This document shows positions 21,719-41,339 of a stretch of DNA of 64,000 nucleotides, in pieces (position 1 is the stretch's first letter; each line of letters begins with the position of its first letter). Made by a program: the position numbers and the translations under genes. Below the pieces are notes generated by a model, which saw only the letters and a program-made list of their open reading frames with translations, was not told the DNA's origin and searched no databases. Source of the stretch: Cytophagaceae bacterium (GTDB lineage Bacteria; Bacteroidota; Bacteroidia; Cytophagales; UBA9547); NCBI GenBank assembly GCA_027488865.1, contig JAIYAU010000058.1, positions 2,724-66,723 on the forward strand, read 5' to 3'.

Positions 21719-22148
21719 AGGAAAATCGTCTATGGCTAGTATTTTATATGTATGTTATTCCAAGAAAACCTCTTGAAATTAATATTAATAGTGTTAATAA
21801 GAATCAAACTAATATCGGAAATACAGCTGGAAAATGGTGTAAAGCCACCTAACCAAATTGTACGAAGTTTTATAAAAGTTATATGTAGTGACTTAATAAA
21901 AGCACTAAAACTTTGAAATAACAAAATCAAGACAAAAAGAGGATGTCTCATAGCTAATTAGAAGTAAATAAGAAAATTGTAAAGTACATTTCTCTTACTT
22001 ACAAAGATATATACTAAAATTGAGAAAATTGTCACCAAGCATAATAAAGTTTGTTCAATAAGAGGAAGTTAGTTGTGAAAAGAGAATGGTTCGTCTGAAT
22101 CACAGATTTACATAGATGTCACGGATTAGATGTGCATGGTGAATGGTT

Positions 22149-22180
22149 GTCTGAACTATGATTTTTTTGATTTAGGTGAT
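22149..22180. repeat. 32-nt sequence identical to 30501-30532; the two copies bracket the tandem paralog pair
   Basis: gtctgaactatgatttttttgatttaggtgat is present at both coordinates. A degenerate partial copy (gtctgaatcacagattt) lies at ~22093. Confidence 0.8.
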
Positions 22181-22189
22181 TGACAGGAT

Positions 22190-22259
22190 GGATAATGGGA
22201 TAATTGATAATTGATAATTGTCAATTATCAACTTTCAATTATCAATTATCAATTATTCC
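22190..22259. repeat. AT-rich heptamer-based imperfect palindrome directly downstream of the stop of gene 22265..26113; possible terminator hairpin
   Basis: ggataat-gggataat-tgataat-tgataat-tg | tcaatta-tcaactt-tcaatta-tcaatta-tcaatta. The arms are largely complementary. Confidence 0.6.
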
Positions 22260-24290
22260 TTAACTTACTCTACCACTACCTTATGCACTTTGCTGCTGTA
22301 GGGGTTGGATACTTTTACGAAGTATACACCTTTCTCCAAGTTGCTTAGGTCGATGCTGCCGTTGCTGGTGCCTGACTGTTGTAACTGGCCTGTCGCAGTG
22401 TGTATCTCGATGTTTGCTGTGCCTTGCAGGCCTTGGATGTAGATGGTCTTGGTAGCTGGATTGGGATATAGTGATAAGCTTCCTGTCTCTAAATCCTGAA
22501 CTCCTGTTACTGCTTCGCTCTCTTCTACTCTTAAGCTACTTACTTCTCCGTTTACCACAGCTACAAAGCTATTGAAATCGTCTTTGGTGATAGCCGTTCC
22601 GCTGTTCTTGGCCAAGTAGATGTAGGCAATTGGTTCTTTGGTTTCTACAAGGTCCTTTAATACGTACGTAGTGGCCATCAAACGCTGTGCGGATGGCACA
22701 TTGTTGCTCATGCTGGCCATTTTATGACTGATCGGCTGTGCGATATCGTAACCTGTTACGTTGAACTTGCTTCTGTCATAGTCCCAAGCGAAGTCGATAC
22801 CTGCACTTGGTCCGTTGCTCTCGTAAGAAACTGGGATGGCCACGTATTGGTCGTTTGCTGAAATGTCTTTCAAAGACAATACCAACACATTAGAAGGTTT
22901 TTCTGTACGCAAGGTAGTTCCGTTGGTGGCAAGCCATGAGCTGTTTACATCTCCTAGAAGGATGGCATGGTAAGTTTGATCCACTGTAGTAGTTCCACAG
23001 GTGCTCAAGTCTGCTGATACAGGAAGGTAAGCAGGCACTGCTGGAACTTTAAACCTAGTGGCTGTGGTAAATGGTGTGGTAGTCAACAAGGTTGCGTCAA
23101 CAAACAACCAGTCTTTTGACTTGGCATAAGGTACTTTGGCACTTAGGATGCCGTTTGCATCTGCTTCGTAGTTCCAAGACTGTGGGAACTCGCAATTGTA
23201 TTGGTTTAAGCCACGGGAAGAGATAAGTGCAGCATCACCAGAAGTTACTCTGCCATCTAGGTTCACATCTGCTGCCAATAATTGGAAGATGGTTGGGGCT
23301 GTCACGACGCCGTTGGCGATTTGTGCGGCGGTGGTTCTGTCTGCGGCATTGATGACTGTGGTAATGTTGGCACAGCTGGCAAAGGCTACACTGGCATCGC
23401 CCAAGACATCACGGCTGAGAGTGAGGGACTTCAAAGTGGCATCTGGTACGGTAAAAAGGCCATTGGCATCCAGTGAAGGGCTTGCCAATGCTGTTCCTGT
23501 GGCATCGGTCGTGCTATAAGGGGTGATGGTGGTTGGGTTTTGCCCAGTTACACCGCTAATCTTTTTGGTAGCTGTCTCTCTGTATTGTATTTGACCATTA
23601 AAAGCTCTAGTAAAGTTGAAGGCACCTGGCACTACTGGACAAACCACATTGGAAGTAAACAGCTTGCTCTCGATCAGGTCAGAGGTGCTGAAGCTAGAGA
23701 GGGCTTGGTTGGGAGCTACACCTGTGTTGATCCTGAAATTGACATTGATTACCACTCCATCACCACTGAAGAAAGTGTTTGCAGGAGCACCATTAAGGTA
23801 CAAGCCAACGCCTACCTTACCAGGAGTACTGCTGTTGAGGTCGAAAGTAGCAAAGGTGGTAGCTACTGGGCCTACTGTTGCGGTGCCTGTTGGTGTTACC
23901 TTGGTGTCATCGTATAACAGGTCAAAATCAAGAGCGATGAGACCTGAAGCGATATTGCCTACTGTTTTTACTGGAACACTAAATGTGCCAGCTGGGGTAC
24001 AAAGGACGGTTTGTGGATCTATTTTGTATTTAGAGGTCTCTACTGTGCCTGTGCCTGAGGTAGTGCCTGTTACTGTTAAAGTACCACAACGGATGATTTT
24101 TCCGTTGTTTATTAGGTTACCAGAAACTGCTAGTGTAGTGCCTGAGGCAATCGTTAGTGTTTGCCCTGCATTGATGGTGAGGTCTTTGGCAGTTAAGATA
24201 CCGTTGTCTAAGGTGCTGTAGTTGCCGTTGATAATGGCATCGGTGGCAGCGTCTGGGGCTGAAGGTGACCAGGTGGTGCCGTTCCATGTG
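22255..24290 (-). repeat. About 2.0-kb block roughly 95% identical (by eye) to 26442-28477; this is the 3' coding half of paralog A
   Basis: Direct comparison of the two stretches at an offset of 4187 nt. The encoded C-terminal ~675 aa differ at only a handful of positions. Confidence 0.8.
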
Positions 24291-26113
24291 GAGGGGGTAG
24301 TATATAACAAAATGGTACCAAATATCCCTACTGCCCGGCCTAATGTACTGGAGGTAAAGTTAACGGAATATATTATTTGTGTTGTGCCCGAGTTTTGAAC
24401 CGTCCAAGTCGCTCCACCATTGCTTGTTGTCAAGATGATTCCACCCCCCCCTACTGCCCAGCCTTGTGTAGCGGAGGTAAAGTATACAGAAAACAATAGC
24501 TCTGTTGTTCCAGCGCTCTGTGCTGTCCAAGTGATACCGCCATTGCTTGTAGTCAAAATAGTACCACTTAGTCCTACTGCCCAACCTTGGGTAGCGGAAG
24601 CAAAGTATGAATCGCGTAATGAGAGGGAGGTGCCGGAGGTTTGAGCCGTCCAAGTGATACCACCATTGCTCGTGGTCAAGATCGTACCTCCATCGCCAAC
24701 AATCCAGCCTTGCAAAGCGGAGGTGAAGTAAACAGATCGCAATGCTCGTGTGGTACCAAAGATTTGGGCCGTCCAAGTGGTACCGCCGTTGTTCGTAGTT
24801 AAGATAGTACCACCAGTCCCAACTGCCCAACCTTGTCTATCGGAGGTAAAGTACACAGAATACAAAAGTTCTGTAGTACCAGACGTTTGGACTGACCAAG
24901 TTACGCCGCCGTTGCTTGTAGCCAAGATCGTACCACCTTCCCCTACCACCCAACCTTGTGTCGCGGAAGTAAAGTAAACGGAAGTTAATGTTCGTATCGA
25001 ACCAACGGGTTGAGCGATCCAAGTGTTACCACCATCGGTCGTAGTAAATATCCCACCACCAGTTCCAATTTGCCCTACTGCCCAGCCTTGCGTAGCGGAT
25101 GTAAAGAAAACTGACTGTAGTGCCTGTGCGGTATTTAATATTTGGGCTGACCACGTTGTACCGCCATTGTTCGTAGTCAAGATTGTACCACTTCCTCCTA
25201 TTGCCCAGCCTTGCAAAGCGGAGGTAAAGTATACGGAATTTAAAATTTGAGTCGTACCCGAGGTCTGGGCAGTCCATGTGCCACCACTATTGCTTGTAGT
25301 CAGGATGGTACCATTACTCCCTACAGCCCAGCCTTGGGTAGTAGATGTAAAGTATATTGAATATAATGATTGCGTTGTACCAGAGGATTGAACTGTCCAC
25401 GTTATACCACCATTATTGGTAGATAAGATTGTACCATTTTCACCTACTGACCAACCTTGTGTAGCGGAGGTAAAATAAACGGACCTTAATACTTGTGTAG
25501 TACTAGAAATCTGGGCGGTCCATGTATTACCTCCATCGTTTGTAGTCAAGATTGTACCACCAGCCCCTACTGCATAGCCTTGTGTAGAAGAGATAAAGAA
25601 AACGGATAATAACGACTGTGTTGTACCTGAAGTCTGGGGTGTCCATGTCGTTCCTCCGTTGCTCGTTGTTAAGATTGTACCACCGACCCCTACTACCCAA
25701 CCTTGCGTTGCGGAGGTAAAATAAACGGAGCTTAATACTTGTATAGTACCAGAGATCTGGGAGGTCCACATATTTCCGCCACTGCTCGTGGTCAAGATTG
25801 TACCAGCATTCCCTACTATCCAGCCTTGCGTTGCAGAAGTAAAGTAAACGGAATTTAATGTTTCCGTTGTACCAGAGGTCCTAGCAGTCCACCTGGTTCC
25901 TCCATTGATTGTTGTCAAAATTGTACCGCCATCACCTACTGCCCAACCTTGGGTAACAGAGGTAAAAAAGGTACCCCTCATATCGCCAACAGCGCTAGAA
26001 GCACCAAATTCAACTGATTTCCATGTTTGGGAATAGGCTGCTATGCTCGTAATAAAGAGCAGGATTGCCCCCAGAATGGTGCTACTGAACTTTGAGAAGA
26101 TTATCTTTTTCAA
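22265..26113 (-). CDS. T9SS-secreted surface protein, paralog A: signal peptide, 14 Asp-box/Ycf48(BNR)-like propeller blades, cohesin-like domain, dockerin-like Ca-binding segment, second cohesin-like domain, Por C-terminal sorting domain
   Basis: 1282-aa ORF. Fourteen repeats of about 41 aa match SVYFTSATQGWAVGxxGTILTTxNGGxTWTxQxSGTTxxL. Further motifs: IALDFDLLYDDTKVTP, LLAADVNLDGRVTSGDAALI, GIDFAWDYDRSKFNVTG. C-terminus reads LSLYPNPATKTIYI...GVYFVKV...KVVVE. The start codon at the position homologous to the paralog B ATG is TTG. Confidence 0.8.
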   Translation of the reverse strand: MKKIIFSKFSSTILGAILLFITSIAAYSQTWKSVEFGASSAVGDMRGTFFTSVTQGWAVGDGGTILTTINGGTRWTARTSGTTETLNSVYFTSATQGWIVGNAGTILTTSSGGNMWTSQISGTIQVLSSVYFTSATQGWVVGVGGTILTTSNGGTTWTPQTSGTTQSLLSVFFISSTQGYAVGAGGTILTTNDGGNTWTAQISSTTQVLRSVYFTSATQGWSVGENGTILSTNNGGITWTVQSSGTTQSLYSIYFTSTTQGWAVGSNGTILTTSNSGGTWTAQTSGTTQILNSVYFTSALQGWAIGGSGTILTTNNGGTTWSAQILNTAQALQSVFFTSATQGWAVGQIGTGGGIFTTTDGGNTWIAQPVGSIRTLTSVYFTSATQGWVVGEGGTILATSNGGVTWSVQTSGTTELLYSVYFTSDRQGWAVGTGGTILTTNNGGTTWTAQIFGTTRALRSVYFTSALQGWIVGDGGTILTTSNGGITWTAQTSGTSLSLRDSYFASATQGWAVGLSGTILTTSNGGITWTAQSAGTTELLFSVYFTSATQGWAVGGGGIILTTSNGGATWTVQNSGTTQIIYSVNFTSSTLGRAVGIFGTILLYTTPSTWNGTTWSPSAPDAATDAIINGNYSTLDNGILTAKDLTINAGQTLTIASGTTLAVSGNLINNGKIIRCGTLTVTGTTSGTGTVETSKYKIDPQTVLCTPAGTFSVPVKTVGNIASGLIALDFDLLYDDTKVTPTGTATVGPVATTFATFDLNSSTPGKVGVGLYLNGAPANTFFSGDGVVINVNFRINTGVAPNQALSSFSTSDLIESKLFTSNVVCPVVPGAFNFTRAFNGQIQYRETATKKISGVTGQNPTTITPYSTTDATGTALASPSLDANGLFTVPDATLKSLTLSRDVLGDASVAFASCANITTVINAADRTTAAQIANGVVTAPTIFQLLAADVNLDGRVTSGDAALISSRGLNQYNCEFPQSWNYEADANGILSAKVPYAKSKDWLFVDATLLTTTPFTTATRFKVPAVPAYLPVSADLSTCGTTTVDQTYHAILLGDVNSSWLATNGTTLRTEKPSNVLVLSLKDISANDQYVAIPVSYESNGPSAGIDFAWDYDRSKFNVTGYDIAQPISHKMASMSNNVPSAQRLMATTYVLKDLVETKEPIAYIYLAKNSGTAITKDDFNSFVAVVNGEVSSLRVEESEAVTGVQDLETGSLSLYPNPATKTIYIQGLQGTANIEIHTATGQLQQSGTSNGSIDLSNLEKGVYFVKVSNPYSSKVHKVVVE
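24300..26000 (-). repeat. About 123-nt periodic coding repeat (14 propeller blades) in paralog A
   Basis: The blade consensus recurs every ~41 aa. It generates the many overlapping shadow ORFs listed in the track between 24.3 and 25.8 kb. Confidence 0.8.
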
Positions 26114-26188
26114 TAGATTAGGAAGAAATGAGTTAATCGAAATAATTAGGTTTTAGCTTAAATGATTTCTACTGCTGATAGAACCTAC

Positions 26189-26196
26189 CAAAATTA
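26189..26196 (-). promoter_or_regulatory. Candidate Bacteroidota -7 box (TAATTTTG on minus strand) for paralog A
   Basis: Matches TAnnTTTG and lies 76 nt upstream of the start codon. Paralog B has TAGTTTTG at the same 76-nt distance. No clear -33 TTG was seen. Confidence 0.35.
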
Positions 26197-26255
26197 AAGA
26201 AAAGTAGGATAATATTGGTCATGGGAAAGGGATTATTTTTACAGAAATTGAAAAG

Positions 26256-26388
26256 AGAATGATGAATTGATAATGGAGAATTGAGAATGGAGAATTGAGA
26301 ATGACGAATGATGAATTGATAATGGAGAATGGATAATTTTCAACTATCAATTGTTAATTTTCAATTATCAATTATCAACTATCAATTG
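26256..26388. repeat. About 12 tandem heptamers (K-G-A-K-A-A-T) followed by a block of roughly complementary ATTATCA-type heptamers; long imperfect palindrome between the two paralogs
   Basis: gagaat gatgaat tgataat ggagaat tgagaat ggagaat tgagaat gacgaat gatgaat tgataat ggagaat ggataat | ttcaactatcaattgttaattttcaattatcaattatcaactatcaattg. Confidence 0.7.
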
Positions 26389-26391
26389 TAT

Positions 26392-26428
26392 AAATCCCCA
26401 AAAGCCATTATCTGACCATTGGGGATTT
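26392..26428 (-). terminator. Hairpin AAATCCCCAA-loop-TTGGGGATTT downstream of the paralog B stop
   Basis: Perfect 10-bp arms at 26392-26401 and 26419-26428, 24 nt after the stop at 26452. The U-tail on the minus strand is weak. Confidence 0.5.
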
Positions 26429-26441
26429 TACTTTAAACCTT

Positions 26442-28477
26442 ATTCCTTAACTTACTCTACCACTACTTTGTGCACTTTGCTGCTGTAGGGGTTGGATACT
26501 TTCACGAAGTATACGCCTTTCTCCAAGTTGCTTAGGTCGATGCTGCCGTTGCTGGTACCTGACTGCTGTAACTGGCCTGTCGCAGTGTGTATCTCGATGT
26601 TTGCTGTGCCTTGCAAGCCTTGGATGTAGATGGTCTTAGAAGCTGGGTTAGGATATAGTGATAGGCTTCCTGTTTCTAAATCTTGAACTCCTGTTACTGC
26701 TTCGCTCTCTTCTACTCTTAAGCTACTTACCTCTCCGTTTACTACAGCTAATAAGCTATTGAAATCGTCTTTGGTGATAGCCGTTCCGCTGTTCTTGGCC
26801 AAGTAGATGTAGGCAATTGGTTCTTTGGTTTCTACGAGGTCTTTTAATACGTACGTAGTGGCCATCAATCGTTGTGCGGATGGTACATTGTTGCTCAAGC
26901 TGGCCATTTTATTACTGATCGGCTGTGCGATGTCGTAACCTGTTACGTTGAACTTGCTTCTGTCATAGTCCCAAGCGAAGTCGATACCTGCACTTGGTCC
27001 GTTGCTCTCATAAGAAACTGGGATGGCCACGTATTGGTCGTTTGCTGAAATGTCTTTTAAGGACAATACCAACACATTAGAAGGTTTTTCTGTACGCAAG
27101 GTGGCTCCGTTGGTAGCAAGCCATGAGCTGTTTACATCTCCCAACAAAACGGCATGGTAAGTTTGATCCACTGTAGTAGTTCCGCAGGTGCTCAAGTCTG
27201 CTGATACAGGAAGGTAAGCAGGAACTGCTGGAACTTTAAATCTAGTAGCCGTGGTAAATGGTGTGGTGGCCAACAATGTTGCGTCTACAAACAACCAGTC
27301 TTTTGACTTGGCATAAGGTACTTTGGCACTTAGGATGCCGTTTGCATCTGCTTCGTAGTTCCATGATTGTGGGAACTCGCAGTTGTATTGGTTTAAGCCA
27401 CGGGAAGAGATAAGTGCAGCATCTCCAGATGTTACTCTGCCATCGAGGTTCACGTCTGCTGCCAACAATTGGAAGATGGTCGGAGCAGTCACGACGCCGT
27501 TGGCGATTTGTGCAGCGGTCGTTCTGTCTGCGGCATTTATCACTGTGGTGATGTTGGCACAACTGGCAAAGGCCACGCTGGCATCACCCAATACATCACG
27601 GCTGAAGGTGAGGGACTTCAAAGTAGCATCTGGAACGGTAAACAGGCCATTGGCATCTAGTGAAGGGCTTGTCAATGCTATTCCTGTCGCATCGGTCGTG
27701 CTATAAGGGGTAATGGTGGTTGGGTTTTGCCCAGTTACACCGCTGATCTTCTTTGTAGCTGTTTCTCTGTATTGTATTTGACCATTAAAGGCTCTGGTAA
27801 AGTTGAAGGCACCTGGCACTACAGGGCAAACGACATTGGAAGTAAACAGTTTACTCTCGATCAGGTCTGAGGTGCTGAAGCTAGAAAGGGCTTGGTTGGG
27901 TGCTACACCTGTGTTGATTCTGAAATTGACATTGATTACCACTCCATCACCGCTGAAGAAGGTGTTAGCTGGAGCACCATTAAGGTACAAGCCAATACCT
28001 ACTTTGCCAGGCGTGCTGCTGTTAAGATCGAAAGTAGCAAAGGTGGTAGCTACTGGACCTACTGTGGCGGTGCCTGTTGGTGTTACCTTGGTGTCATCAT
28101 ACAATAGGTCAAAATCAAGAGCGATCAAGCCTGAGGAGATGTTGCCTACTGTTTTTACAGGAACGCTAAAGGTACCTGCTGGGGTACAAAGGACGGTTTG
28201 TGGATCTATTTTGTATTTAGAGGTCTCTACTGTGCCTGTGCCTGAGGTGGTGCCTGTTACTGTCAAAGTGCCACAACGGATGATTTTTCCGTTGTTTATC
28301 AAGTTGCCAGAGACAGCTAGTGTTGTGCCAGAAGCAATCGTTAGTGTTTGACCGGCATTGATGGTGAGGTCTTTGGCAGTAAAGATGCCGTTTTCTAGGG
28401 TACTATAATTGCCGTTGATGATTGCATTGGTAGTGGCATCTGGGGCTGAAGGGCTCCAGGTGGTGCCGTTCCAGGTG
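26442..28477 (-). repeat. About 2.0-kb block roughly 95% identical to 22255-24290; this is the 3' coding half of paralog B
   Basis: Same comparison as for 22255-24290. Identity drops sharply upstream of ~28480 at the propeller boundary. Confidence 0.8.
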
Positions 28478-30324
28478 GAGGGGGGTGGCGGGGCGTCATA
28501 CAACAAGATGGTGCCAATATCACCTACTGCCCAACTTCGAGTAGGAGATGTAGAGTAAACGGAATACAAGTTTCGGGTTGTGCCTGAATTTTGAACTGTC
28601 CAAGTGGTACCGCCATTGCTTGTAGTCAAGATCGTACCACTACCCCCTACTGCCCATCCTTGGGTAAAAGAGGTGAAGTAAACGGATAATAAAACTTGTG
28701 ACGTAAGGGATGTTTGGGCCGTCCATGTGGTTCCTCCATTGCTTGTAGTCAAGATCGTACCACTATTACCTACTACCCAACCTTGCGTAGCAGAGATGAA
28801 GTAAACAGACCTTAGTATTTGTGTCGTTCCTGATGTTTGGGCTGTCCAAGTTGCACCTCCGTTGTTTGTAGATAAGATTGTACCACCAACACCCGCCGCC
28901 CAGCCTTGGGTGGCGGAAGTAAAATAAACGGAATTTAAATTATTTGTCGTGCCCGAGGTTTGGGCGGTCCAGGTAATACCGCCATTGCTTGTTGTCAAGA
29001 TTGTACCTCCATCTCCGACCGCCCAGCCTTTTGTAGAGGAGGTAAGGTAAACTGAAGCTAATCTTTGAGTCGTACCAGAAATCTGAGTGTTCCATGTTAC
29101 ACCGCCATTGGTTGTTGTCAAAATAGTACCCCCATTCCCCACAACCCAACCTTGGGTAGCGGAAGTAAAATTAACAGAATTTAAGTGTTGCGTCGTGCCA
29201 GATATCTGGGGAGTCCACACAGTACCTCCATTGCTTGTTACCAAGATAGTGCCAGCACTCCCTACTACCCAACCTTGAGTAGCGGAGGTAAAATAAACCG
29301 ATAATAAAAACTGTGATGAACCAAAGAGCTGGGCCGTCCATGTGGCACCAGCATTACTAGTAGTCAAAGTGATACCACCATCCCCAACTGCCCAGCCTTG
29401 TGTGGGGGAGGTAAAGTAAACGGAATATAGAATCTGTTTGGTGCCCGAGGTTTGGGAAGTCCAAGTGGCACCGCCATTGTTTGTGGTCAAAATGGTACCA
29501 TCACCCCCTACTGCCCAGCCTTGTGAAGCACTAGTAAATTTAATGGAATATAATCCGAGTGTTGCAGCCGAGGTCTGGACTGACCAAGTGGCACCACCAT
29601 TATTCGTAGTTAAGATTTCATTACCAAGTGATACCGCCCATCCTTGTGTAGCGGAGTTAAAGTATACGGAGCTTAGTTCTTGATACGTACCAGAAGTTTG
29701 GGCAGTCCAAGTAGTACCACTATTGCTAGTTGTTAAGATAGTTCCACCCTGTCCAACAGCCCATCCTTGCGTAGCAGAAGTAAAGTAAACAGAAGATAAG
29801 TTTTGTGTCGTACCCGAAGTTTGTGCTGTCCAAGTAGCACCACCATTGATAGTAGTCAAAATTGCACTAAACTTACCCAACATCCAGTCGCCATCCCCAA
29901 CTACCCAGCCCTGTGTAGCAGAGGTAAAGTAAACGGAGGATAACGTTTGAGTCGTACCAGAGGCTTGAGCCGTCCACGTGATACCACCATTGCTCGTAGT
30001 CCTGATAATACCATTAACCCCAACTGCCCAGCCTTGCGTAGAAGAGGTAAAAAAAACGGAATTTAATGTTTGATTTGTACCAGAGGTTTGAGCTGTCCAC
30101 GTGATACCACCATTGTTCGTAGTCCTGATAATACCATTAACCCCAACCGCCCAACCTTGCGAAGGTGAGATAAAAAAGGTTTCCCTCATGCTTTGATTAT
30201 TATAATTGCCGCCTAATTCGAGGGGTGTTTTCCACGTTTGAGCATTGGCTCCCATGCTGGTAATGAAAAGCAAGGCCATCCCGAGAATAGCGCTGCTGAG
30301 TTTTGAGAAAATTGTCTTTTTCAT
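26452..30324 (-). CDS. T9SS-secreted surface protein, paralog B, with the same architecture as paralog A
   Basis: 1290-aa ORF with an ATG start and signal peptide MKKTIFSKLSSAILGMALLFITSMGANA. It has 14 blades, cohesin-like/dockerin-like motifs identical to paralog A, and the same Por CTD. Confidence 0.85.
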   Translation of the reverse strand: MKKTIFSKLSSAILGMALLFITSMGANAQTWKTPLELGGNYNNQSMRETFFISPSQGWAVGVNGIIRTTNNGGITWTAQTSGTNQTLNSVFFTSSTQGWAVGVNGIIRTTSNGGITWTAQASGTTQTLSSVYFTSATQGWVVGDGDWMLGKFSAILTTINGGATWTAQTSGTTQNLSSVYFTSATQGWAVGQGGTILTTSNSGTTWTAQTSGTYQELSSVYFNSATQGWAVSLGNEILTTNNGGATWSVQTSAATLGLYSIKFTSASQGWAVGGDGTILTTNNGGATWTSQTSGTKQILYSVYFTSPTQGWAVGDGGITLTTSNAGATWTAQLFGSSQFLLSVYFTSATQGWVVGSAGTILVTSNGGTVWTPQISGTTQHLNSVNFTSATQGWVVGNGGTILTTTNGGVTWNTQISGTTQRLASVYLTSSTKGWAVGDGGTILTTSNGGITWTAQTSGTTNNLNSVYFTSATQGWAAGVGGTILSTNNGGATWTAQTSGTTQILRSVYFISATQGWVVGNSGTILTTSNGGTTWTAQTSLTSQVLLSVYFTSFTQGWAVGGSGTILTTSNGGTTWTVQNSGTTRNLYSVYSTSPTRSWAVGDIGTILLYDAPPPPSTWNGTTWSPSAPDATTNAIINGNYSTLENGIFTAKDLTINAGQTLTIASGTTLAVSGNLINNGKIIRCGTLTVTGTTSGTGTVETSKYKIDPQTVLCTPAGTFSVPVKTVGNISSGLIALDFDLLYDDTKVTPTGTATVGPVATTFATFDLNSSTPGKVGIGLYLNGAPANTFFSGDGVVINVNFRINTGVAPNQALSSFSTSDLIESKLFTSNVVCPVVPGAFNFTRAFNGQIQYRETATKKISGVTGQNPTTITPYSTTDATGIALTSPSLDANGLFTVPDATLKSLTFSRDVLGDASVAFASCANITTVINAADRTTAAQIANGVVTAPTIFQLLAADVNLDGRVTSGDAALISSRGLNQYNCEFPQSWNYEADANGILSAKVPYAKSKDWLFVDATLLATTPFTTATRFKVPAVPAYLPVSADLSTCGTTTVDQTYHAVLLGDVNSSWLATNGATLRTEKPSNVLVLSLKDISANDQYVAIPVSYESNGPSAGIDFAWDYDRSKFNVTGYDIAQPISNKMASLSNNVPSAQRLMATTYVLKDLVETKEPIAYIYLAKNSGTAITKDDFNSLLAVVNGEVSSLRVEESEAVTGVQDLETGSLSLYPNPASKTIYIQGLQGTANIEIHTATGQLQQSGTSNGSIDLSNLEKGVYFVKVSNPYSSKVHKVVVE
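28490..30190 (-). repeat. About 123-nt periodic coding repeat (14 propeller blades) in paralog B
   Basis: The blade consensus recurs every ~41 aa. Confidence 0.8.
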
Positions 30325-30399
30325 TAGATTAAGAAGAAAAGAATTGATTGAAAGAATGAGTTTTTAGTTTAAGTGATTCCAATTGCTGATAAAATCTAT

Positions 30400-30407
30400 C
30401 AAAACTA
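30400..30407 (-). promoter_or_regulatory. Candidate -7 box (TAGTTTTG on minus strand) for paralog B
   Basis: Matches TAnnTTTG, 76 nt upstream of the ATG at 30324. Its position is conserved with paralog A inside ~150 nt of homologous upstream sequence. Confidence 0.35.
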
Positions 30408-30500
30408 AAGAAATTAGGATAATCTTGGTAATGGAAAAGGGATTATTTTTGTAGAAATTGAAAAGTTATAATTGCGTGTTGGATAAGTGCAATATTTTTT

Positions 30501-30621
30501 GTCTGAACTATGATTTTTTTGATTTAGGTGATGGATTTGATGTTGATGACTAAGTGAAAAGGTGATTTGTAAATGTGAAATGAGAATCATGGTCATCAAT
30601 CATGCGAATCATAGTTCAGAC
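30501..30621. repeat. 121-bp element bounded by perfect 15-bp terminal inverted repeats (MITE-like or REP-like hairpin); its left end is the 32-nt repeat shared with 22149-22180
   Basis: gtctgaactatgatt (30501-30515) pairs with aatcatagttcagac (30607-30621). The interior is made of tgatt/aatca-type short repeats. Confidence 0.6.
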
Positions 30622-30661
30622 AATTTGAATACTCGGTCTGACCCTAGGGGGTACCGACTGG

Positions 30662-30708
30662 TACAAAAAACAAAATCCCCAAAGGCCATTTACTGACCTT
30701 GGGGATTT
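30662..30708 (-). terminator. Rho-independent terminator of the 189-aa gene
   Basis: Arms AAATCCCCAA (30673-30682) and TTGGGGATTT (30699-30708). On the minus strand the hairpin is followed by TTTTGTTTTTTG. Confidence 0.75.
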
Positions 30709-30733
30709 ACGTTAAACTTTGAACCTTGACCTG

Positions 30734-31303
30734 TTAAGCCAATTCTTGTTCTCTGGTGGTTTTATTGCCAGGGCGATCTGTGGCTGTTACCTCAAGCTTG
30801 CTGCCAACTACATTGGTATTGGCCACTGTGGCCAAGAATACCCATTCTATGCCATTTTCTTCGGGCAAGGCAAGGCCGGTCTCTAACAAGGTGCCATCGG
30901 CGTTGAAGATACTTACTCTCACCGACATTACCTCAAAATCATCTACTGCTCGCACGGTGATAGCGTCCCCTACTTTGCCGCTGTAACCAACAGCATCAAT
31001 ATAGGAAACCACGGGCTTGCTGAGGTAGTCGCCCACAGCGGCTTGGTAAGCATTGTTACTGCCTTGTCGGTTACCCAGTTCTTGGTACTCAGCCCTCAGC
31101 ACAATGTCCTTTAAGATACGCTTGCCATATAAAGTGGCTTCCTTAAACCGGACTTGAGCCTCTTGTTGTTTTAAGGTGAACCCTGCCCTTCTCTTTGGAT
31201 TTACATAGAGAACGGTATTACCCCTTTGGCTACGAAATACCATGTCGTGACTTACTTTACCGCTAATCCCTCTTGTGAAATTGTTTTCTTTTACGATACC
31301 CAT
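30734..31303 (-). CDS. Hypothetical 189-aa protein: basic N-terminal half and an Ig-like beta-sandwich-looking C-terminal half; divergent from the WYL regulator gene
   Basis: Clean ATG ORF with its own terminator and no signal peptide. The family was not recognised with confidence. Confidence 0.6.
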   Translation of the reverse strand: MGIVKENNFTRGISGKVSHDMVFRSQRGNTVLYVNPKRRAGFTLKQQEAQVRFKEATLYGKRILKDIVLRAEYQELGNRQGSNNAYQAAVGDYLSKPVVSYIDAVGYSGKVGDAITVRAVDDFEVMSVRVSIFNADGTLLETGLALPEENGIEWVFLATVANTNVVGSKLEVTATDRPGNKTTREQELA

Positions 31304-31318
31304 TGTTTTATGATTTTA

Positions 31319-31382
31319 GTTAATTGTGAAATTGTAAATTGTTAATTGTTAATAGTAAATTGCTAATAGTAAATTGTTAATT
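31319..31382. repeat. Nine tandem heptamers (GTTAATT/GTAAATT type) starting 16 nt upstream of the 189-aa gene start
   Basis: gttaatt gtgaaatt gtaaatt gttaatt gttaata gtaaatt gctaata gtaaatt gttaatt. Confidence 0.75.
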
Positions 31383-31459
31383 GGTGCGTCCCTGATTTGA
31401 TTGCTTGTTCTCTTTTTCATTGTTGTGTTTCGTTGTTGTTGATGCAAAAGTATGGCAGC

Positions 31460-31482
31460 ACAGTGCAACCAGTGTGCACTGT
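31460..31482. promoter_or_regulatory. Perfect 8-7-8 palindrome ACAGTGCA-N7-TGCACTGT in the divergent intergenic region; candidate operator
   Basis: Arms at 31460-31467 and 31475-31482, followed by A8. The A/T run is on the wrong side of the hairpin for a terminator on either strand. Confidence 0.4.
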
Positions 31483-31679
31483 AAAAAAAAGTGAAAAATA
31501 TTTTTTTGGTTGAAATGTGACCTGTAAAAATCCTTGTTATAATTCTTAAGTTTTTATTTTTTGGTCTTAACTACTACTGTTTCAAAATTCCTTGACATGG
31601 TCATAAGGCAATGATGGGTTGGGGATGGATCGGAAGCTTCTTTACATGTCCTTTGCCAACAACATGCTTAACCCAAGAA

Positions 31680-31749
31680 TTTGAATCTTAAACCCTAAAC
31701 CTTCCACTTTAAACGCTTAACTTTAAACCCTAAATCTTAAACTTTGAAC
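31680..31749. repeat. Ten tandem heptamers (YYTAAAC type) ending 6 nt before the WYL gene ATG
   Basis: tttgaat cttaaac cctaaac cttccac tttaaac gcttaac tttaaac cctaaat cttaaac tttgaac. Confidence 0.8.
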
Positions 31750-31755
31750 TAAAAA

Positions 31756-32748
31756 ATGTCTGCTGGCAAAAATCCTTACTTGAGGTACAACATTATCAAC
31801 CAGTGCCTTACCAGTAAAACAAAACCCTATTGGACCGCTCAGGAACTGATGGACAAGATGGGTGAGTATGATATACAGATAGAACGGCGTAGTTTATTTA
31901 ACGATTTTGAGGCCATGCGGCACGATGAGCGGTTGGGATACCATGCGCCGATCACCTTTTGCCGTAAACAACTGGGCTATTATTACAAAAATTCACACTA
32001 TTCCATCAGTGCTATTCCTATCAACGACGAAGACTTGCGTTCTCTTCGCATGGCCACGAGGCTGCTAGAGCAACACAAGGCCTTGCCGCTATTTGTACAG
32101 TTCAAGGGAGTGATGGATAAGCTGGTGACTTTGGTAAACCACCTCCACCAACCCAACAAGAGCAAATACATCTCTTTTGAAACCGCGCCTTACTACAAAG
32201 GACTGGGACACTTAGAAACCCTAATGACCCATATTGAAGCGGAAGAAGCATTGGAGATCGGATACCAAAAGTTTACGGGGCCCAGTAGTGTGTACATCGT
32301 GCACCCCTATCTCTTAAAAGAGTTTAAAAAACGATGGTACTTGTTTGGCTGGCATGAAGGGCGAGGCATCGTAACGGCATTTGGGCTTGACCGCATCGAG
32401 TACATCAGAAAAGCAGCGGTGACTTATCGCAGCAATGAGTCCATCGATGTAGACACCTATTTTAAAAACACGCTTGGTGTGACCTACAGTGGCCAGGCTG
32501 TGGAAAAAGTGGTGTTAGCATTTAACAGCACAATTGCACCTTACATACGCACCCAACACTTACACGAGAGCCAAACAATCCTGTCAGACGACATAAATGG
32601 CCTAGTCATTTCACTTGAGCTGGCTGTGAACTACGAATTGACTTCGCTTGTGCTTGGCTATGGCAATGCCGTTACTGTATTGGCACCACCCTCTTTAATA
32701 CAGGACATCAAGAAAATTGCTACTGAAATGGCGGGGAAGTATAGCTAA
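31756..32748 (+). CDS. WYL-domain transcriptional regulator (N-terminal wHTH, central WYL domain, C-terminal extension)
   Basis: 330 aa. The sequence VYIVHPYLLKEFKKRWYLFGWHEGRGIVTAFGLDRI is a typical WYL-domain core. The N-terminus NPYLRYNIINQCL...WTAQELMDKMG looks like a wHTH. Confidence 0.75.
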   Translation: MSAGKNPYLRYNIINQCLTSKTKPYWTAQELMDKMGEYDIQIERRSLFNDFEAMRHDERLGYHAPITFCRKQLGYYYKNSHYSISAIPINDEDLRSLRMATRLLEQHKALPLFVQFKGVMDKLVTLVNHLHQPNKSKYISFETAPYYKGLGHLETLMTHIEAEEALEIGYQKFTGPSSVYIVHPYLLKEFKKRWYLFGWHEGRGIVTAFGLDRIEYIRKAAVTYRSNESIDVDTYFKNTLGVTYSGQAVEKVVLAFNSTIAPYIRTQHLHESQTILSDDINGLVISLELAVNYELTSLVLGYGNAVTVLAPPSLIQDIKKIATEMAGKYS

Positions 32749-32827
32749 TTGGGTTGACTGATTAAGAAATTTAAAGCATTGAAAGGTTATAAGGATTCGT
32801 AAAACTTGTAAATATGAAAATGACAAC

Positions 32828-32939
32828 TATTGGAAATGTACAATTATAAGGTTCTCGAAGGACTCTCGGAAGATACTCGGAAGATGCTTGGAAGATGAAA
32901 ATGAAGATAACTGTGGGAAATTATTGGAAAAGTACAATT
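32828..32939. repeat. Five tandem 11-mers (CTCGGAAGATR, 32854-32908) flanked by an 18-nt direct repeat with one mismatch (32828-32845 and 32922-32939)
   Basis: ctcgaaggact ctcggaagata ctcggaagatg cttggaagatg aaaatgaagat; flanks are tattggaaatgtacaatt and tattggaaaagtacaatt. Confidence 0.75.
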
Positions 32940-33220
32940 TACATGGATATTTTGGTTGCGAATTTATGAATGAATAGTTGAATCAAAAAGCAAGTGAAGT
33001 AAAAATATCTTTTGAAATTTAAATTATTTAGGCACGATATAGAACGACCAACGAGCTGTATTTTCGAAATATAAAATTGGGGTATGAAAAAGCGTGCTGC
33101 TAGATCGAAAATGATTGTAACAACAACTAATTTGGGATTTCTATCAAAGTTAGAAAAATAGTTTTTGGTATGGCAACGTTTTCGCACATTTTTGCATCTT
33201 TGTATTGAATAACTAAGATC

Positions 33221-39236: not shown

Positions 39237-41339
39237 ATGGCACGTGACCTCAAATATACAAGAAACATCGGTATTGCAGCACATATAGATGCTGGTAAAA
39301 CGACCACCACTGAGCGTATATTATATTATGCTGGTGTAAGTCATAAAATTGGAGAGGTACATGACGGTGCAGCCACCATGGACTGGATGGCTCAAGAGCA
39401 AGAAAGAGGTATTACTATTACATCTGCTGCTACCACAGTAGGTTGGAAATACAAAAATGAGAACTACCACGTAAACATTATTGACACTCCTGGTCACGTT
39501 GATTTTACAGTGGAAGTAAACCGTTCATTACGTGTATTGGATGGTTTAGTATTTTTATTTAGTGCAGTTGATGGTGTTGAACCTCAATCAGAAACTAACT
39601 GGAGACTTGCTAACAATTATAATGTAGCTCGTGTAGGATTTGTTAATAAAATGGACCGCTCTGGTGCAGACTTCTTAAACGTGTGCAAGCAAGTTAAAGA
39701 AATGTTAGGTAGCCATGCAGTTCCTTTACAAATACCAATTGGTGCTGAAGATCAATTTAAAGGTGTTGTAGATTTAGTAAACTGGAGAGGAATCATCTGG
39801 AATGAACATGACAAGGGTATGACTTTTCAAGAAGTTCCAATACCTGAGGATGTAATGGAAGATGCTCTTAAATATAGAGAGTTATTGTTGGAGGCTGTAG
39901 CCGAGTACGATGACAAACTTATGGAGAAATTCTTCGAAGATCCTAACTCAATCACAGAAGAAGAAATGTTAACCGCTTTAAGAAAAGCAACAATCGATAT
40001 GAAGATTGTACCTATGCTTTGCGGTTCTTCATTTAAAAATAAAGGTGTACAAACAATGTTAGATTATGTAATGGCGATTTTACCATCTCCATTAGATAAA
40101 AAGAGCATTATTGGTACAGACCCTGATACAGGTGCTGAAATAGAGAGAAAGCCATCAGAATCCGAACCATTCTGTGGATTAGCATTTAAGATTGCAACAG
40201 ATCCATTTGTAGGTCGTTTGTGCTTTGTAAGAGCTTATTCTGGTGTTTTAGAATCAGGTTCATATGTATATAACGCTAGATCTAATTCAAAAGAAAGGAT
40301 TTCGCGTATATTCCAAATGCATGCGAACAAACAAAATCAAATTGAACGTTTAGCAGCTGGTGATATTGGTGCAGTAGTTGGTTTCAAAGACATTAAAACT
40401 GGTGACACGCTGTGCGACGAAAAAAATAGAATAGTGCTTGAATCAATGGTATTCCCTGATCCAGTAATTGGATATGCAGTGGAGCCTAAGAAACAAGCTG
40501 ACGTTGATAAATTTTCTACTGCAATTACTAAATTGATTGAAGAAGATCCAACATTAAAAGTTGAAACTGATCACGAGACTGGACAAACAGTATTGAGAGG
40601 TATGGGTGAGCTCCACCTTGAAATCATCATTGATCGTATGAAGCGTGAATTTGGTGTAGAAATAAATCAAGGCGCTCCTCAAGTAGCTTATAGAGAGAAG
40701 ATTACCAAGAAATTTGAACATAGAGAAGTTTATAAAAAACAAACTGGTGGTCGTGGTAAATTTGCGGACATCGTGTTTGAAATGGGACCAAGAGAAGCAG
40801 AAGGAACTGGTCTTGAATTTGTAAATGAAATTGTAGGTGGTGTTATTCCTAGAGAATTTATCCAACCAGTTCAAAAAGGTTTTGAAGAGGCAATGAAGAA
40901 TGGTGTATTGGCTGGTTATCCAGTTGAATCGCTTAGAGTTAGACTTTTCCACGGTTCGTATCACGATGTGGATTCTGACTCACTTTCTTTCGAACTTGCA
41001 GCAAGACAAGGTTATAAAGAAGCAGCAAGAAATGCGGGTCCAGTATTGTTGGAACCAATTATGAATGTTGAGGTAGTAACCCCTGAAGAATATACAGGTC
41101 CAATTACTGGTGACTTGAATAGAAGAAGAGGGTTAATGAAAGGGATGGATGCCAAAATCAACGGACAAGTGATTAAAGCTGATGTACCACTTTCGGAATT
41201 GTTTGGATATGTAACCGATTTGAGAACAATGTCTTCAGGAAGAGCAACTGCTTCTTTAACGTTCTCTCATTACGAGCAAGTTCCAAATAACTTAGCTGAA
41301 TCAGTAGTAGCAAAAGTAAAAGGAGCCGTAAAGGCATAA
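39237..41339 (+). CDS. fusA: Elongation factor G
   Basis: 700 aa; [24 protein letters not shown] GTPase motifs. Confidence 0.97.

Follow-up and report, generated by a model that had tools for sequence, protein, structure and literature searches.

The genome of a Cytophagaceae bacterium (phylum Bacteroidota, order Cytophagales; GenBank assembly GCA_027488865.1) carries four adjoining genes whose base composition departs strongly from that of the genome as a whole. They lie at positions 22150-32800 of a 64,000 nt stretch of DNA, here termed the window, which corresponds to positions 2724-66723 of a 130.8-kb contig (JAIYAU010000058.1, designated C55) in an assembly of 4.33 Mb, 64 contigs and 34.7% G+C (GC). 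An initial inspection of the sequence, referred to below as the original prediction, had interpreted this patch as a single unit of genes and spacers that was acquired recently from a higher-GC member of the same phylum. We have considered the genes, the DNA that separates them and their relatives in other genomes, and we conclude that the genes were probably acquired horizontally, as older and separate modules and not as a discrete island of recent arrival.

Genes within and around the patch

Two of the genes are tandem paralogs on the minus strand. Paralog 1 (22265..26113) encodes 1282 amino acids (aa) if translation begins at a TTG codon, or 1238 aa from an ATG at 25981, and its product matches the Pfam models PSII_BNR (1e-64), Cohesin (6e-07) and Por_Secre_tail (3e-12). 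The GC content of this gene is 0.473, and that of its second codon positions (GC2) is 0.543. Paralog 2 (26452..30324, minus strand; 1290 aa; GC 0.469) is a tandem duplicate whose product is 83% identical to that of paralog 1. Both proteins have a signal peptide, visible in the translations as a hydrophobic N-terminus, about 14 Ycf48/BNR-like blades of 41 aa, a cohesin-like domain and a Por_Secre_tail domain, with PF18962 and TIGR04183 matching the final 70 residues; paralog 1 also has a dockerin-like stretch. The combination of signal peptide and Por_Secre_tail is that of type A cargo of the type IX secretion system (T9SS), and both proteins are predicted to be secreted.

Type A cargo proteins with Ycf48/BNR propellers, annotated as 'YCF48-related protein' in Bacteroidota metagenome-assembled genomes (MAGs), have the same signal peptide, tandem 41-aa blades and C-terminal Por_Secre_tail. 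When 5.8 billion proteins were searched, the best matches to the paralogs were 55-66% identical over the propeller half only, and came from Bacteroidia and Chitinophagaceae MAGs and from metagenomic contigs. The paralogs differ from such proteins in that their cohesin-like and dockerin-like C-terminal half is absent from P0055, the best near-full-length match examined; among the matches listed, only P0061 also has a cohesin domain. They differ as well in codon usage, which is foreign to the present host.

The other two genes are arranged divergently. On the minus strand, the gene at 30734..31303 encodes a 189-aa protein of an uncharacterized and patchily distributed family. An AlphaFold2 model of this protein (pLDDT 91.8) has a small N-terminal domain, composed of a beta-hairpin and three helices, and a C-terminal Ig-like domain that contains the motif DRPGN. 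The 189-aa protein has no apparent signal peptide, no family in Pfam, NCBIfam, PADLOC or PHROG matches it, and a fold search returned generic Ig-like or Ig-fold matches only. The gene at 31756..32748 on the plus strand encodes a 330-aa WYL-WCX transcription-factor-like protein, in which the WYL domain (PF13280, residues 152-217, 2.6e-12) is followed by the WCX domain (PF25583, residues 250-326, 4.8e-11) and which matches PADLOC WYL models at 9e-27. Its N-terminus matched no Pfam helix-turn-helix (HTH) model at E 0.001; homologues are labelled YafY-type regulators by JGI.

To the left of the patch lies a giant open reading frame (ORF) of more than 8147 aa, which extends off the contig and encodes a giant adhesin. 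To the right lies a native gene for a 552-aa T9SS cargo protein, followed by pgk and then by the rpsL-rpsG-fusA cluster.

Atypical synonymous sites in the four genes

Composition was compared with two genome-wide reference sets: 3741 windows of 10 kb (mean GC 0.346, standard deviation 0.016), and 2778 non-overlapping ORFs of at least 150 aa, which provide 81% coverage and whose GC content at third codon positions (GC3) has a median of 0.283, a standard deviation of 0.048 and a 99th percentile of 0.469. The GC content of positions 22150-32800 averages 44.8%, about 6.5 standard deviations over the genome mean, and the 10-kb window that represents the patch, at 0.450, ranks first of the 3741. A 1-kb profile gives values of 0.42-0.49 at 22-30 kb and 0.39-0.43 onward to 33 kb, flanked by 0.28-0.38 downstream and by 0.35-0.44 in the giant ORF upstream. 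Averaged by region, the four coding sequences have 45.7-47.3% GC, the giant ORF has 39.4%, and positions 33221-64000 have 33.4%. The original prediction rested on counts made in single lines of 60 nt. Those inside the patch (58.3, 51.7, 53.3 and 45.0%) and outside it (30.0, 30.0, 28.3 and 31.7%) were reproduced, except that the line at 40021 contains 30% GC and not 28%, and the lines represent local peaks above the regional mean.

The anomaly extends to synonymous sites. GC3 is 0.439 and 0.441 in paralogs 1 and 2, 0.484 in the 189-aa gene and 0.541 in the WYL gene, which is the most atypical of the four; these values fall at percentiles 98.5-99.8 of the ORF set, or in its top 0.2-1.5%. An expected GC3, computed for each gene from its amino-acid content and from genome-wide codon use, is just 0.29-0.31 for these genes, leaving residuals of +0.135 to +0.25. 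Their per-codon usage log-likelihoods lie in the bottom 0.1-0.6% of ORFs, and the raw tetranucleotide distance of the patch exceeds that of all 400 windows sampled. The GC anomaly originally predicted at 22150-32800 is therefore upheld by the sliding-window GC, GC3, codon and k-mer profiles, with GC3 and k-mers falling outside the genome distribution.

The prediction had also held that amino-acid bias accounts for only part of the signal, which agrees with our results. In the paralogs a GC2 of 0.54, reflecting blades rich in Gly, Thr, Ser, Ala and Trp, accounts for slightly more than half of the raw excess in GC, with GC3 supplying the remainder, whereas nearly the whole excess of the WYL gene sits in GC3. 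The giant ORF is a different case. Its intermediate GC content had been noticed correctly, but with an overall GC of 0.393, a GC2 of 0.45 and a native GC3 of 0.276, this is purely an amino-acid effect and the ORF is native.

Codon preferences are similar among the four genes. The GC3 excess of paralog 1 resides wholly in C-ending codons (C at third positions 0.30 versus 0.14 in the genome), and the paralogs use ATC for 61%, TAC for 64%, GCC for 33%, GGC for 30% and AGC for 29% of the respective amino acids. The WYL and 189-aa genes have the same preferences and in addition use more G-ending codons (GTG 42%); G makes up 0.40 of the third positions of NNR codons in this pair versus 0.31 in the paralogs, and 0.21 versus 0.11 at four-fold degenerate sites. 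Host genes for abundant proteins look otherwise: in rpsL, rpsG, fusA, rpsJ and pgk, C and G each occupy 7% of four-fold sites, ATC provides 15% of Ile codons and GGC 8% of Gly codons. Translational selection was rejected as the cause, since the rps, fusA and pgk pattern is the opposite at four-fold and Ile codons. Amino-acid bias was rejected as a full explanation, given an expected GC3 of about 0.30 and the composition of a propeller-cargo homologue (N-terminal half 55% identical) in a metagenomic contig of 38% GC. That gene has a GC of 0.40 and a GC3 of 0.27, which indicates that this type of protein does not force a high GC3. Structured RNA was likewise rejected, as nothing between 21000 and 34000 matches Rfam at E <= 1. 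The atypical composition of the four genes is thus explained neither by amino-acid content nor by expression level.

Host-like spacers and the age of the patch

The GC signal had been described as spanning the four genes plus their spacers, which does not hold. All five spacers have 28-33% GC, in agreement with the non-ORF background of the genome (31.3%), and are filled with host repeats; the signal is confined to the coding sequences.

The left spacer (21719..22264, 28.2% GC) contains a 44-nt dispersed repeat of the D16 type at 22147-22190 and, downstream of paralog 1, a GATAATT/AATTATC heptamer palindrome at 22199-22256. Palindromes of this kind lie downstream of both paralogs. The spacer between the paralogs (26114..26451, 28.4% GC) holds heptamer arrays at 26255-26387, a terminator-like hairpin at 26397-26434 and a duplicated upstream segment. 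Between paralog 2 and the 189-aa gene (30325..30733, 32.5% GC) there is an inverted pair of D16 elements (30499-30542 and 30598-30623) and, at 30667-30705, a terminator hairpin that is followed, on the minus strand, by a T-run. The hairpin of the inter-paralog spacer is 86% identical to this hairpin after the 189-aa gene. The shared control region of the divergent pair (31304..31755, 31.4% GC) has heptamer arrays adjoining both start codons (31319-31383 and 31687-31749), and the right spacer (32749..33220, 30.7% GC) has one copy (approximately 32830-32990) of a dispersed host repeat of about 160 nt. This repeat (32830-32990) incorporates the phased 11-mer array seen along the right edge of the patch.

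These elements occur throughout the genome. AATTATC is its commonest class of period-7 array (25 arrays), and similar heptamer arrays occur on no fewer than 15 other contigs, one of them immediately following a second WYL gene on contig C47. The D16 element of about 44 nt, present in the patch at 22147, 30499 and, inverted, 30598, recurs at C38:670, C39:603 and 5010, C16:10393 and C14:2949. Six other copies of the 160-nt repeat (76-85% identity) reside on C56, C63, C14, C28, C40 and C5. Intergenic DNA in this organism is unusually rich in arrays, as Tandem Repeats Finder (TRF) with loose settings reports 2322 short-period tandem arrays, predominantly of period 6-13.

Repeats shared with many other contigs in each internal spacer speak against the notion that the patch is an artefact, either a chimera of the assembly or contaminating DNA fused to a native contig. 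In addition, native genes flank the region to either side within its 130.8-kb contig, estimated contamination is 0.72%, and an independent Logan assembly (L021) matches 2381 nt at 100% identity. The assembly is a 64-contig draft, and L021, the sole independent contig, covers 30503-32883 but not the flank junctions, as it begins inside the D16 repeat at 30503 and ends inside the 160-nt repeat at 32883. On balance an artefact of this kind is extremely improbable.

The paralogs provide an estimate of time. Their overall synonymous divergence (dS) is 0.63; it amounts to 0.14-0.43 for residues 700-1290 and reaches about 1 or more within the blades, where repeat shuffling may inflate the value. The C-terminal half is well aligned and strongly constrained, with a non-synonymous divergence (dN) of 0.004-0.018. 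The first 142 nt of the inter-paralog spacer are 83% identical to 30325-30465 and are already AT-rich. The simplest reading is that the duplication took place in the present lineage and that each copy has since accumulated about 0.15 synonymous changes per site. Because the paralogs differ at dS 0.14-0.43, the duplicated spacers are 83% identical and AT-rich, and host-wide repeats occupy every spacer, the acquisition does not appear to be recent.

No mobility genes or tRNA target were detected, as originally predicted, and no island boundaries either. ARAGORN found no tRNA or tmRNA across the whole window, none of the four proteins has a Pfam domain of an integrase, a transposase or another mobility protein, and the spacers are at most 546 nt long. 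No repeat bounds the region as a whole; the 44-nt dispersed host repeat (22147 and 30499) brackets the paralog pair only. A 17-nt inverted match (21812/33054) was rejected as an island bracket because such a match is expected by chance in a region that is this large and has this composition.

Could a higher-GC member of the Bacteroidota nevertheless have supplied one block of about 10.6 kb, genes and spacers together, in a single recent event? The atypical genes adjoin one another and make up the top-GC window of the genome; all four of them prefer ATC, TAC, AGC, GGC and ACC; and if the paralogs came pre-duplicated, their dS is uninformative on residence time. However, the spacers are host-like in composition and contain the commonest heptamer array and two dispersed repeat families, and the region lacks integrase, transposase, tRNA and island-bounding repeat. 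The use of G-ending codons also differs between the paralogs and the WYL/189-aa pair, this pair is found elsewhere without the cargo genes (see below), and nothing above 55-65% identity exists among the 5.8 billion proteins. A single recent event therefore seems quite unlikely, and neither the recency nor the unity of the originally predicted transfer is sustained.

The WYL/189-aa pair in other genomes

The divergent arrangement of 189-aa gene (minus strand) and WYL gene (plus strand) was found again in three other metagenomic contigs, in none of which a propeller-cargo gene is adjacent. One of these pairs adjoins genes for AbiEi, an M78 peptidase, an SNF2 helicase and a nuclease. These contigs have about 39-40% GC, and the pair is somewhat GC-rich in them as well.

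The best match to the WYL protein (55% identity) lies in a metagenomic Logan contig, and homologues from Chryseolinea, Ohtaekwangia, Ekhidna and Hymenobacter are 30-40% identical. Family-level WYL relatives are at most 37% identical, whereas family-level Pgk proteins are 74-86% identical, so that the closest WYL homologue appears to reside in other metagenome DNA and not in the host family. The WYL homologues in most relatives match the composition of their flanks, the exception being one same-family genome. For the 189-aa protein, only 32 homologues were recovered from the 5.8 billion proteins, the best with 51% identity. Full-length members occur in nine of 200 other genomes of the order and in one of 12 of the family, and their GC content follows that of the host from 29% to 64%, with native GC3. 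Three contigs of an ENA metagenome (L022, L023 and L024; 64-66% GC) each contain a 100-aa gene and a 187-aa homologue of the 189-aa protein with differing left flanks within one sample, which suggests that a high-GC organism likewise has this small gene in repeated or mobile form.

The 40 relatives that were compared contain no full-length homologue of the paralogs; their best matches cover the blades only, at 42-60% identity. For the flank, the nearest named Pgk sequences (74-78%) are from Larkinella, Flectobacillus and other Spirosomataceae, and the pgk neighbourhoods of six family-level relatives have nothing in common with the locus beyond pgk itself. Scans of metagenomes returned no relative by the 552-aa flank protein and nothing above 78% by Pgk. 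A related species with 88-89% DNA identity over rpsL-rpsG-fusA keeps the order of pgk, TPR-PD40 gene and rpsL (L039-L041, L043). It comes from the same study as the strain of the window (Logan runs SRR30952574, SRR30952585 and SRR30952594; JGI 3300078644). An exact-protein look-up with RpsG, which located the window strain itself in three runs, encountered this species on short contigs alone, none longer than 4.4 kb and all ending inside pgk.

WYL modules of the PafBC, BrxR and CapW type are HTH-WYL-WCX factors encoded divergently from the genes that they control. The pair in the window likewise combines WYL and WCX domains, a divergent small partner and a palindrome in the shared region, and it recurs beside defence-type genes in another contig. 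It differs in that the partner is a 189-aa Ig-domain protein and not a recognized defence or repair gene, and in that no HTH was detected by a Pfam model. The palindromic motif and its -7 box, of the Bacteroidota type, occupy 31458-31492 and are situated about 155 nt ahead of the start codon of the 189-aa gene. The 35-nt motif, GTGCAC.CTGGTTGCACTG followed by TAnnTTTG, recurs ahead of a dispersed gene family of this genome that encodes 177-aa proteins, where the palindrome GTGCACACTGGTTGCACTG and its TAnnTTTG -7 box are about 25 nt upstream of the start codons. The palindrome at 31458-31492 is a candidate common operator, with a putative promoter role, and the WYL protein may regulate the 189-aa gene.

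Two further WYL-WCX genes are present in the genome. One belongs to a rearranged second version of the module at C47:4875-7303, where a 7.6-kb contig ends: a WYL-WCX gene (46% identical; GC3 0.58), an IS200-like gene (GC3 0.49) and a gene for a 190-aa homologue of the 189-aa protein all lie on one strand. The 190-aa homologue is 33% identical to the 189-aa protein and, with a GC3 of 0.66, has the highest value in the genome; the IS200-like gene was identified by eye and has no Pfam Y1_Tnp match at E <= 1. At C50:141-2887, the third WYL-WCX gene (GC3 0.57) is divergent from a TROVE (Ro60-like) gene (GC3 0.53). Judged by eye, the TROVE gene has an apparent vWA-like region at its end; the TROVE match alone was tested.

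GC3-rich genes elsewhere in the genome

Genes with unusual synonymous sites are not restricted to the window. Among the 2778 ORFs, 75 have a GC3 above 0.40 and many of these are clustered. Ten GC3-rich proteins that were sampled include a Tn7-like TniQ/TniB/Mu-type transposase set, HsdM, a Mu-like portal protein, IS200-like proteins, a T4-type RNA ligase and TROVE; other T9SS cargo and polysaccharide genes in the GC3-rich set were identified by eye only. Elevated GC3 seems to mark much of the flexible gene pool of this organism. The Tn7-like set (TniQ, TniB and Mu-type transposase) is situated at the end of contig C44 (C44:109000-134000), about 130 kb along. At a distance of 10-20 kb the same contig carries a gene for an HsdM methylase as well as large ATPase/DUF4007-like genes, and GC3 is 0.39-0.51 throughout.

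The 177-aa family consists of a dispersed gene unit of about 650 nt that encodes a very basic protein of about 177 aa and occupies 32 loci, 18 of them at contig ends (for example C38:49316-50009, C62:7283-7973, C9:1-640 and C5:100-800). The copies have 72-92% DNA identity, and each forms a single-gene GC spike (0.42-0.48) amid native surroundings. Differences within the family amount to 0.22, 0.19 and 0.42 at the first, second and third codon positions, a pattern which indicates a real coding sequence under purifying selection. Third-position changes that occur as singletons comprise 10 from AT to GC versus 8 from GC to AT, and a looser count gives 50 from GC to AT versus 22 from AT to GC. The N-terminus of the 177-aa protein is homologous to the N-terminal 90 or so residues of the 189-aa protein. 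This N-terminal domain alone is shared elsewhere, and the family as such is unique to the host genome among 1.84 billion representative proteins.

Because the 177-aa family shares both the N-terminal domain of the 189-aa protein and the palindromic promoter motif, the WYL/189-aa pair and the approximately 30 copies of the family might belong to one undescribed, self-propagating or co-regulated system that keeps its own GC-rich composition, and the patch would then be a landing site and not a passive relic of transfer. We regard this idea as a long shot.

A more general possibility is that the four genes are native, and that codon demand, mRNA structure, repeat homogenization or some other selection or family constraint keeps their GC3 high. 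It would account for the 177-aa family, with its maintained GC3 of 0.42-0.56, its domain and its motif, and for the finding that all three WYL genes of the genome are GC3-rich (0.54-0.58); the restriction of the paralog excess to C-ending codons is also a pattern that selection can produce. Yet the highly expressed genes of the host show the opposite at four-fold sites and Ile codons, and homologues of all three families exist at native GC3 elsewhere, including hosts of 29-38% GC. Within the paralogs, GC is as high in the non-repeat half as in the repeat half, and the same range of GC3 marks transposon and prophage genes in this genome. A native origin is accordingly judged unlikely.

Discussion

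A GC3 of 0.44-0.54 where about 0.30 is expected, a codon pattern unlike that of highly expressed genes, and homologues that have the composition of their own hosts together make foreign origin the best reading. We therefore favour, with reasonable but not full confidence, the view that the patch consists of horizontally acquired accessory genes within a stretch of surface-protein genes, comprises at least two modules from Bacteroidota of about 45-50% GC, and is not a discrete, recent mobile island. According to this proposal, the WYL-WCX regulator gene and the 189-aa Ig-domain gene would be a portable module with a common control region, and the double-propeller/cohesin T9SS cargo gene would be a second module that was tandemly duplicated later. 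Both may have entered the variable region between the native giant adhesin and the native 552-aa T9SS cargo gene at an older date, after which the non-coding parts would have been fully replaced or have evolved to resemble the host, while the synonymous sites retained a donor signature. The spacers, terminators and promoter elements that now accompany both modules are of host type. That the pair travels alone in other contigs and has a third-position pattern unlike that of the paralogs is consistent with more than one event.

The composition of the donors can be approached only roughly. A two-state calculation that assumes an equilibrium GC3 of 0.28, duplication in situ and a dS of about 0.3 gives a GC3 of about 0.5 at the time of duplication, a rough inference and not a result, and such a value would point to a donor of roughly 45-50% GC. 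Many members of the order Cytophagales have 45-55% GC. The originally proposed donor, a higher-GC member of the same phylum, remains plausible on this account, with named homologues in Chryseolinea, Ohtaekwangia, Hymenobacter, Chitinophagaceae and Bacteroidia.

Several observations weigh against an acquired origin. The closest genomes compared are related at the family level, with none from the same genus, and no donor or near-identical copy was found, so that transfer is argued from composition and patchy distribution. The GC-normalized tetranucleotide correlation of the patch is mildly atypical, at the 3rd percentile. A few housekeeping-type genes (leuC, ccoNO) also have GC3 values of 0.41-0.49. 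Moreover, the 177-aa family holds its GC3 of 0.42-0.56 despite about 41% third-position divergence among copies, from which it follows that high GC3 alone is no proof of recency.

Classical genomic islands of the Hacker-Kaper type are linked to tRNA genes, bear integrases and are flanked by direct repeats. The patch shares with them a deviant base composition, accessory cargo and a size at the lower limit (10.6 kb), but differs in having no tRNA, integrase, transposase or bounding direct repeats. A closer parallel is provided by partly ameliorated, compositionally atypical acquired genes, for which Lawrence and Ochman reportedly laid out the framework in 1997. Like such clusters, the patch has atypical GC3 and codon usage, a patchy distribution, accessory functions and a setting among variable surface proteins. 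It differs from them in being GC-richer than its host, in having non-coding parts that are already fully host-like, and in that no donor has been identified. Acquired DNA is usually reported to be AT-richer than the host.

In annotation, the four genes are best marked as accessory, probably xenologous genes, and the giant adhesin as native. The GC jump is real at synonymous sites while the non-coding DNA is host-like, and island boundaries drawn from GC content alone can consequently mislead. The recognizable mobile genes that were checked are GC-richer than the core, the reverse of the usual trend, which makes GC3 a handy marker of accessory genes in this organism. The acquisition of surface-protein and regulator genes, as proposed for this locus, would itself be ordinary biology.

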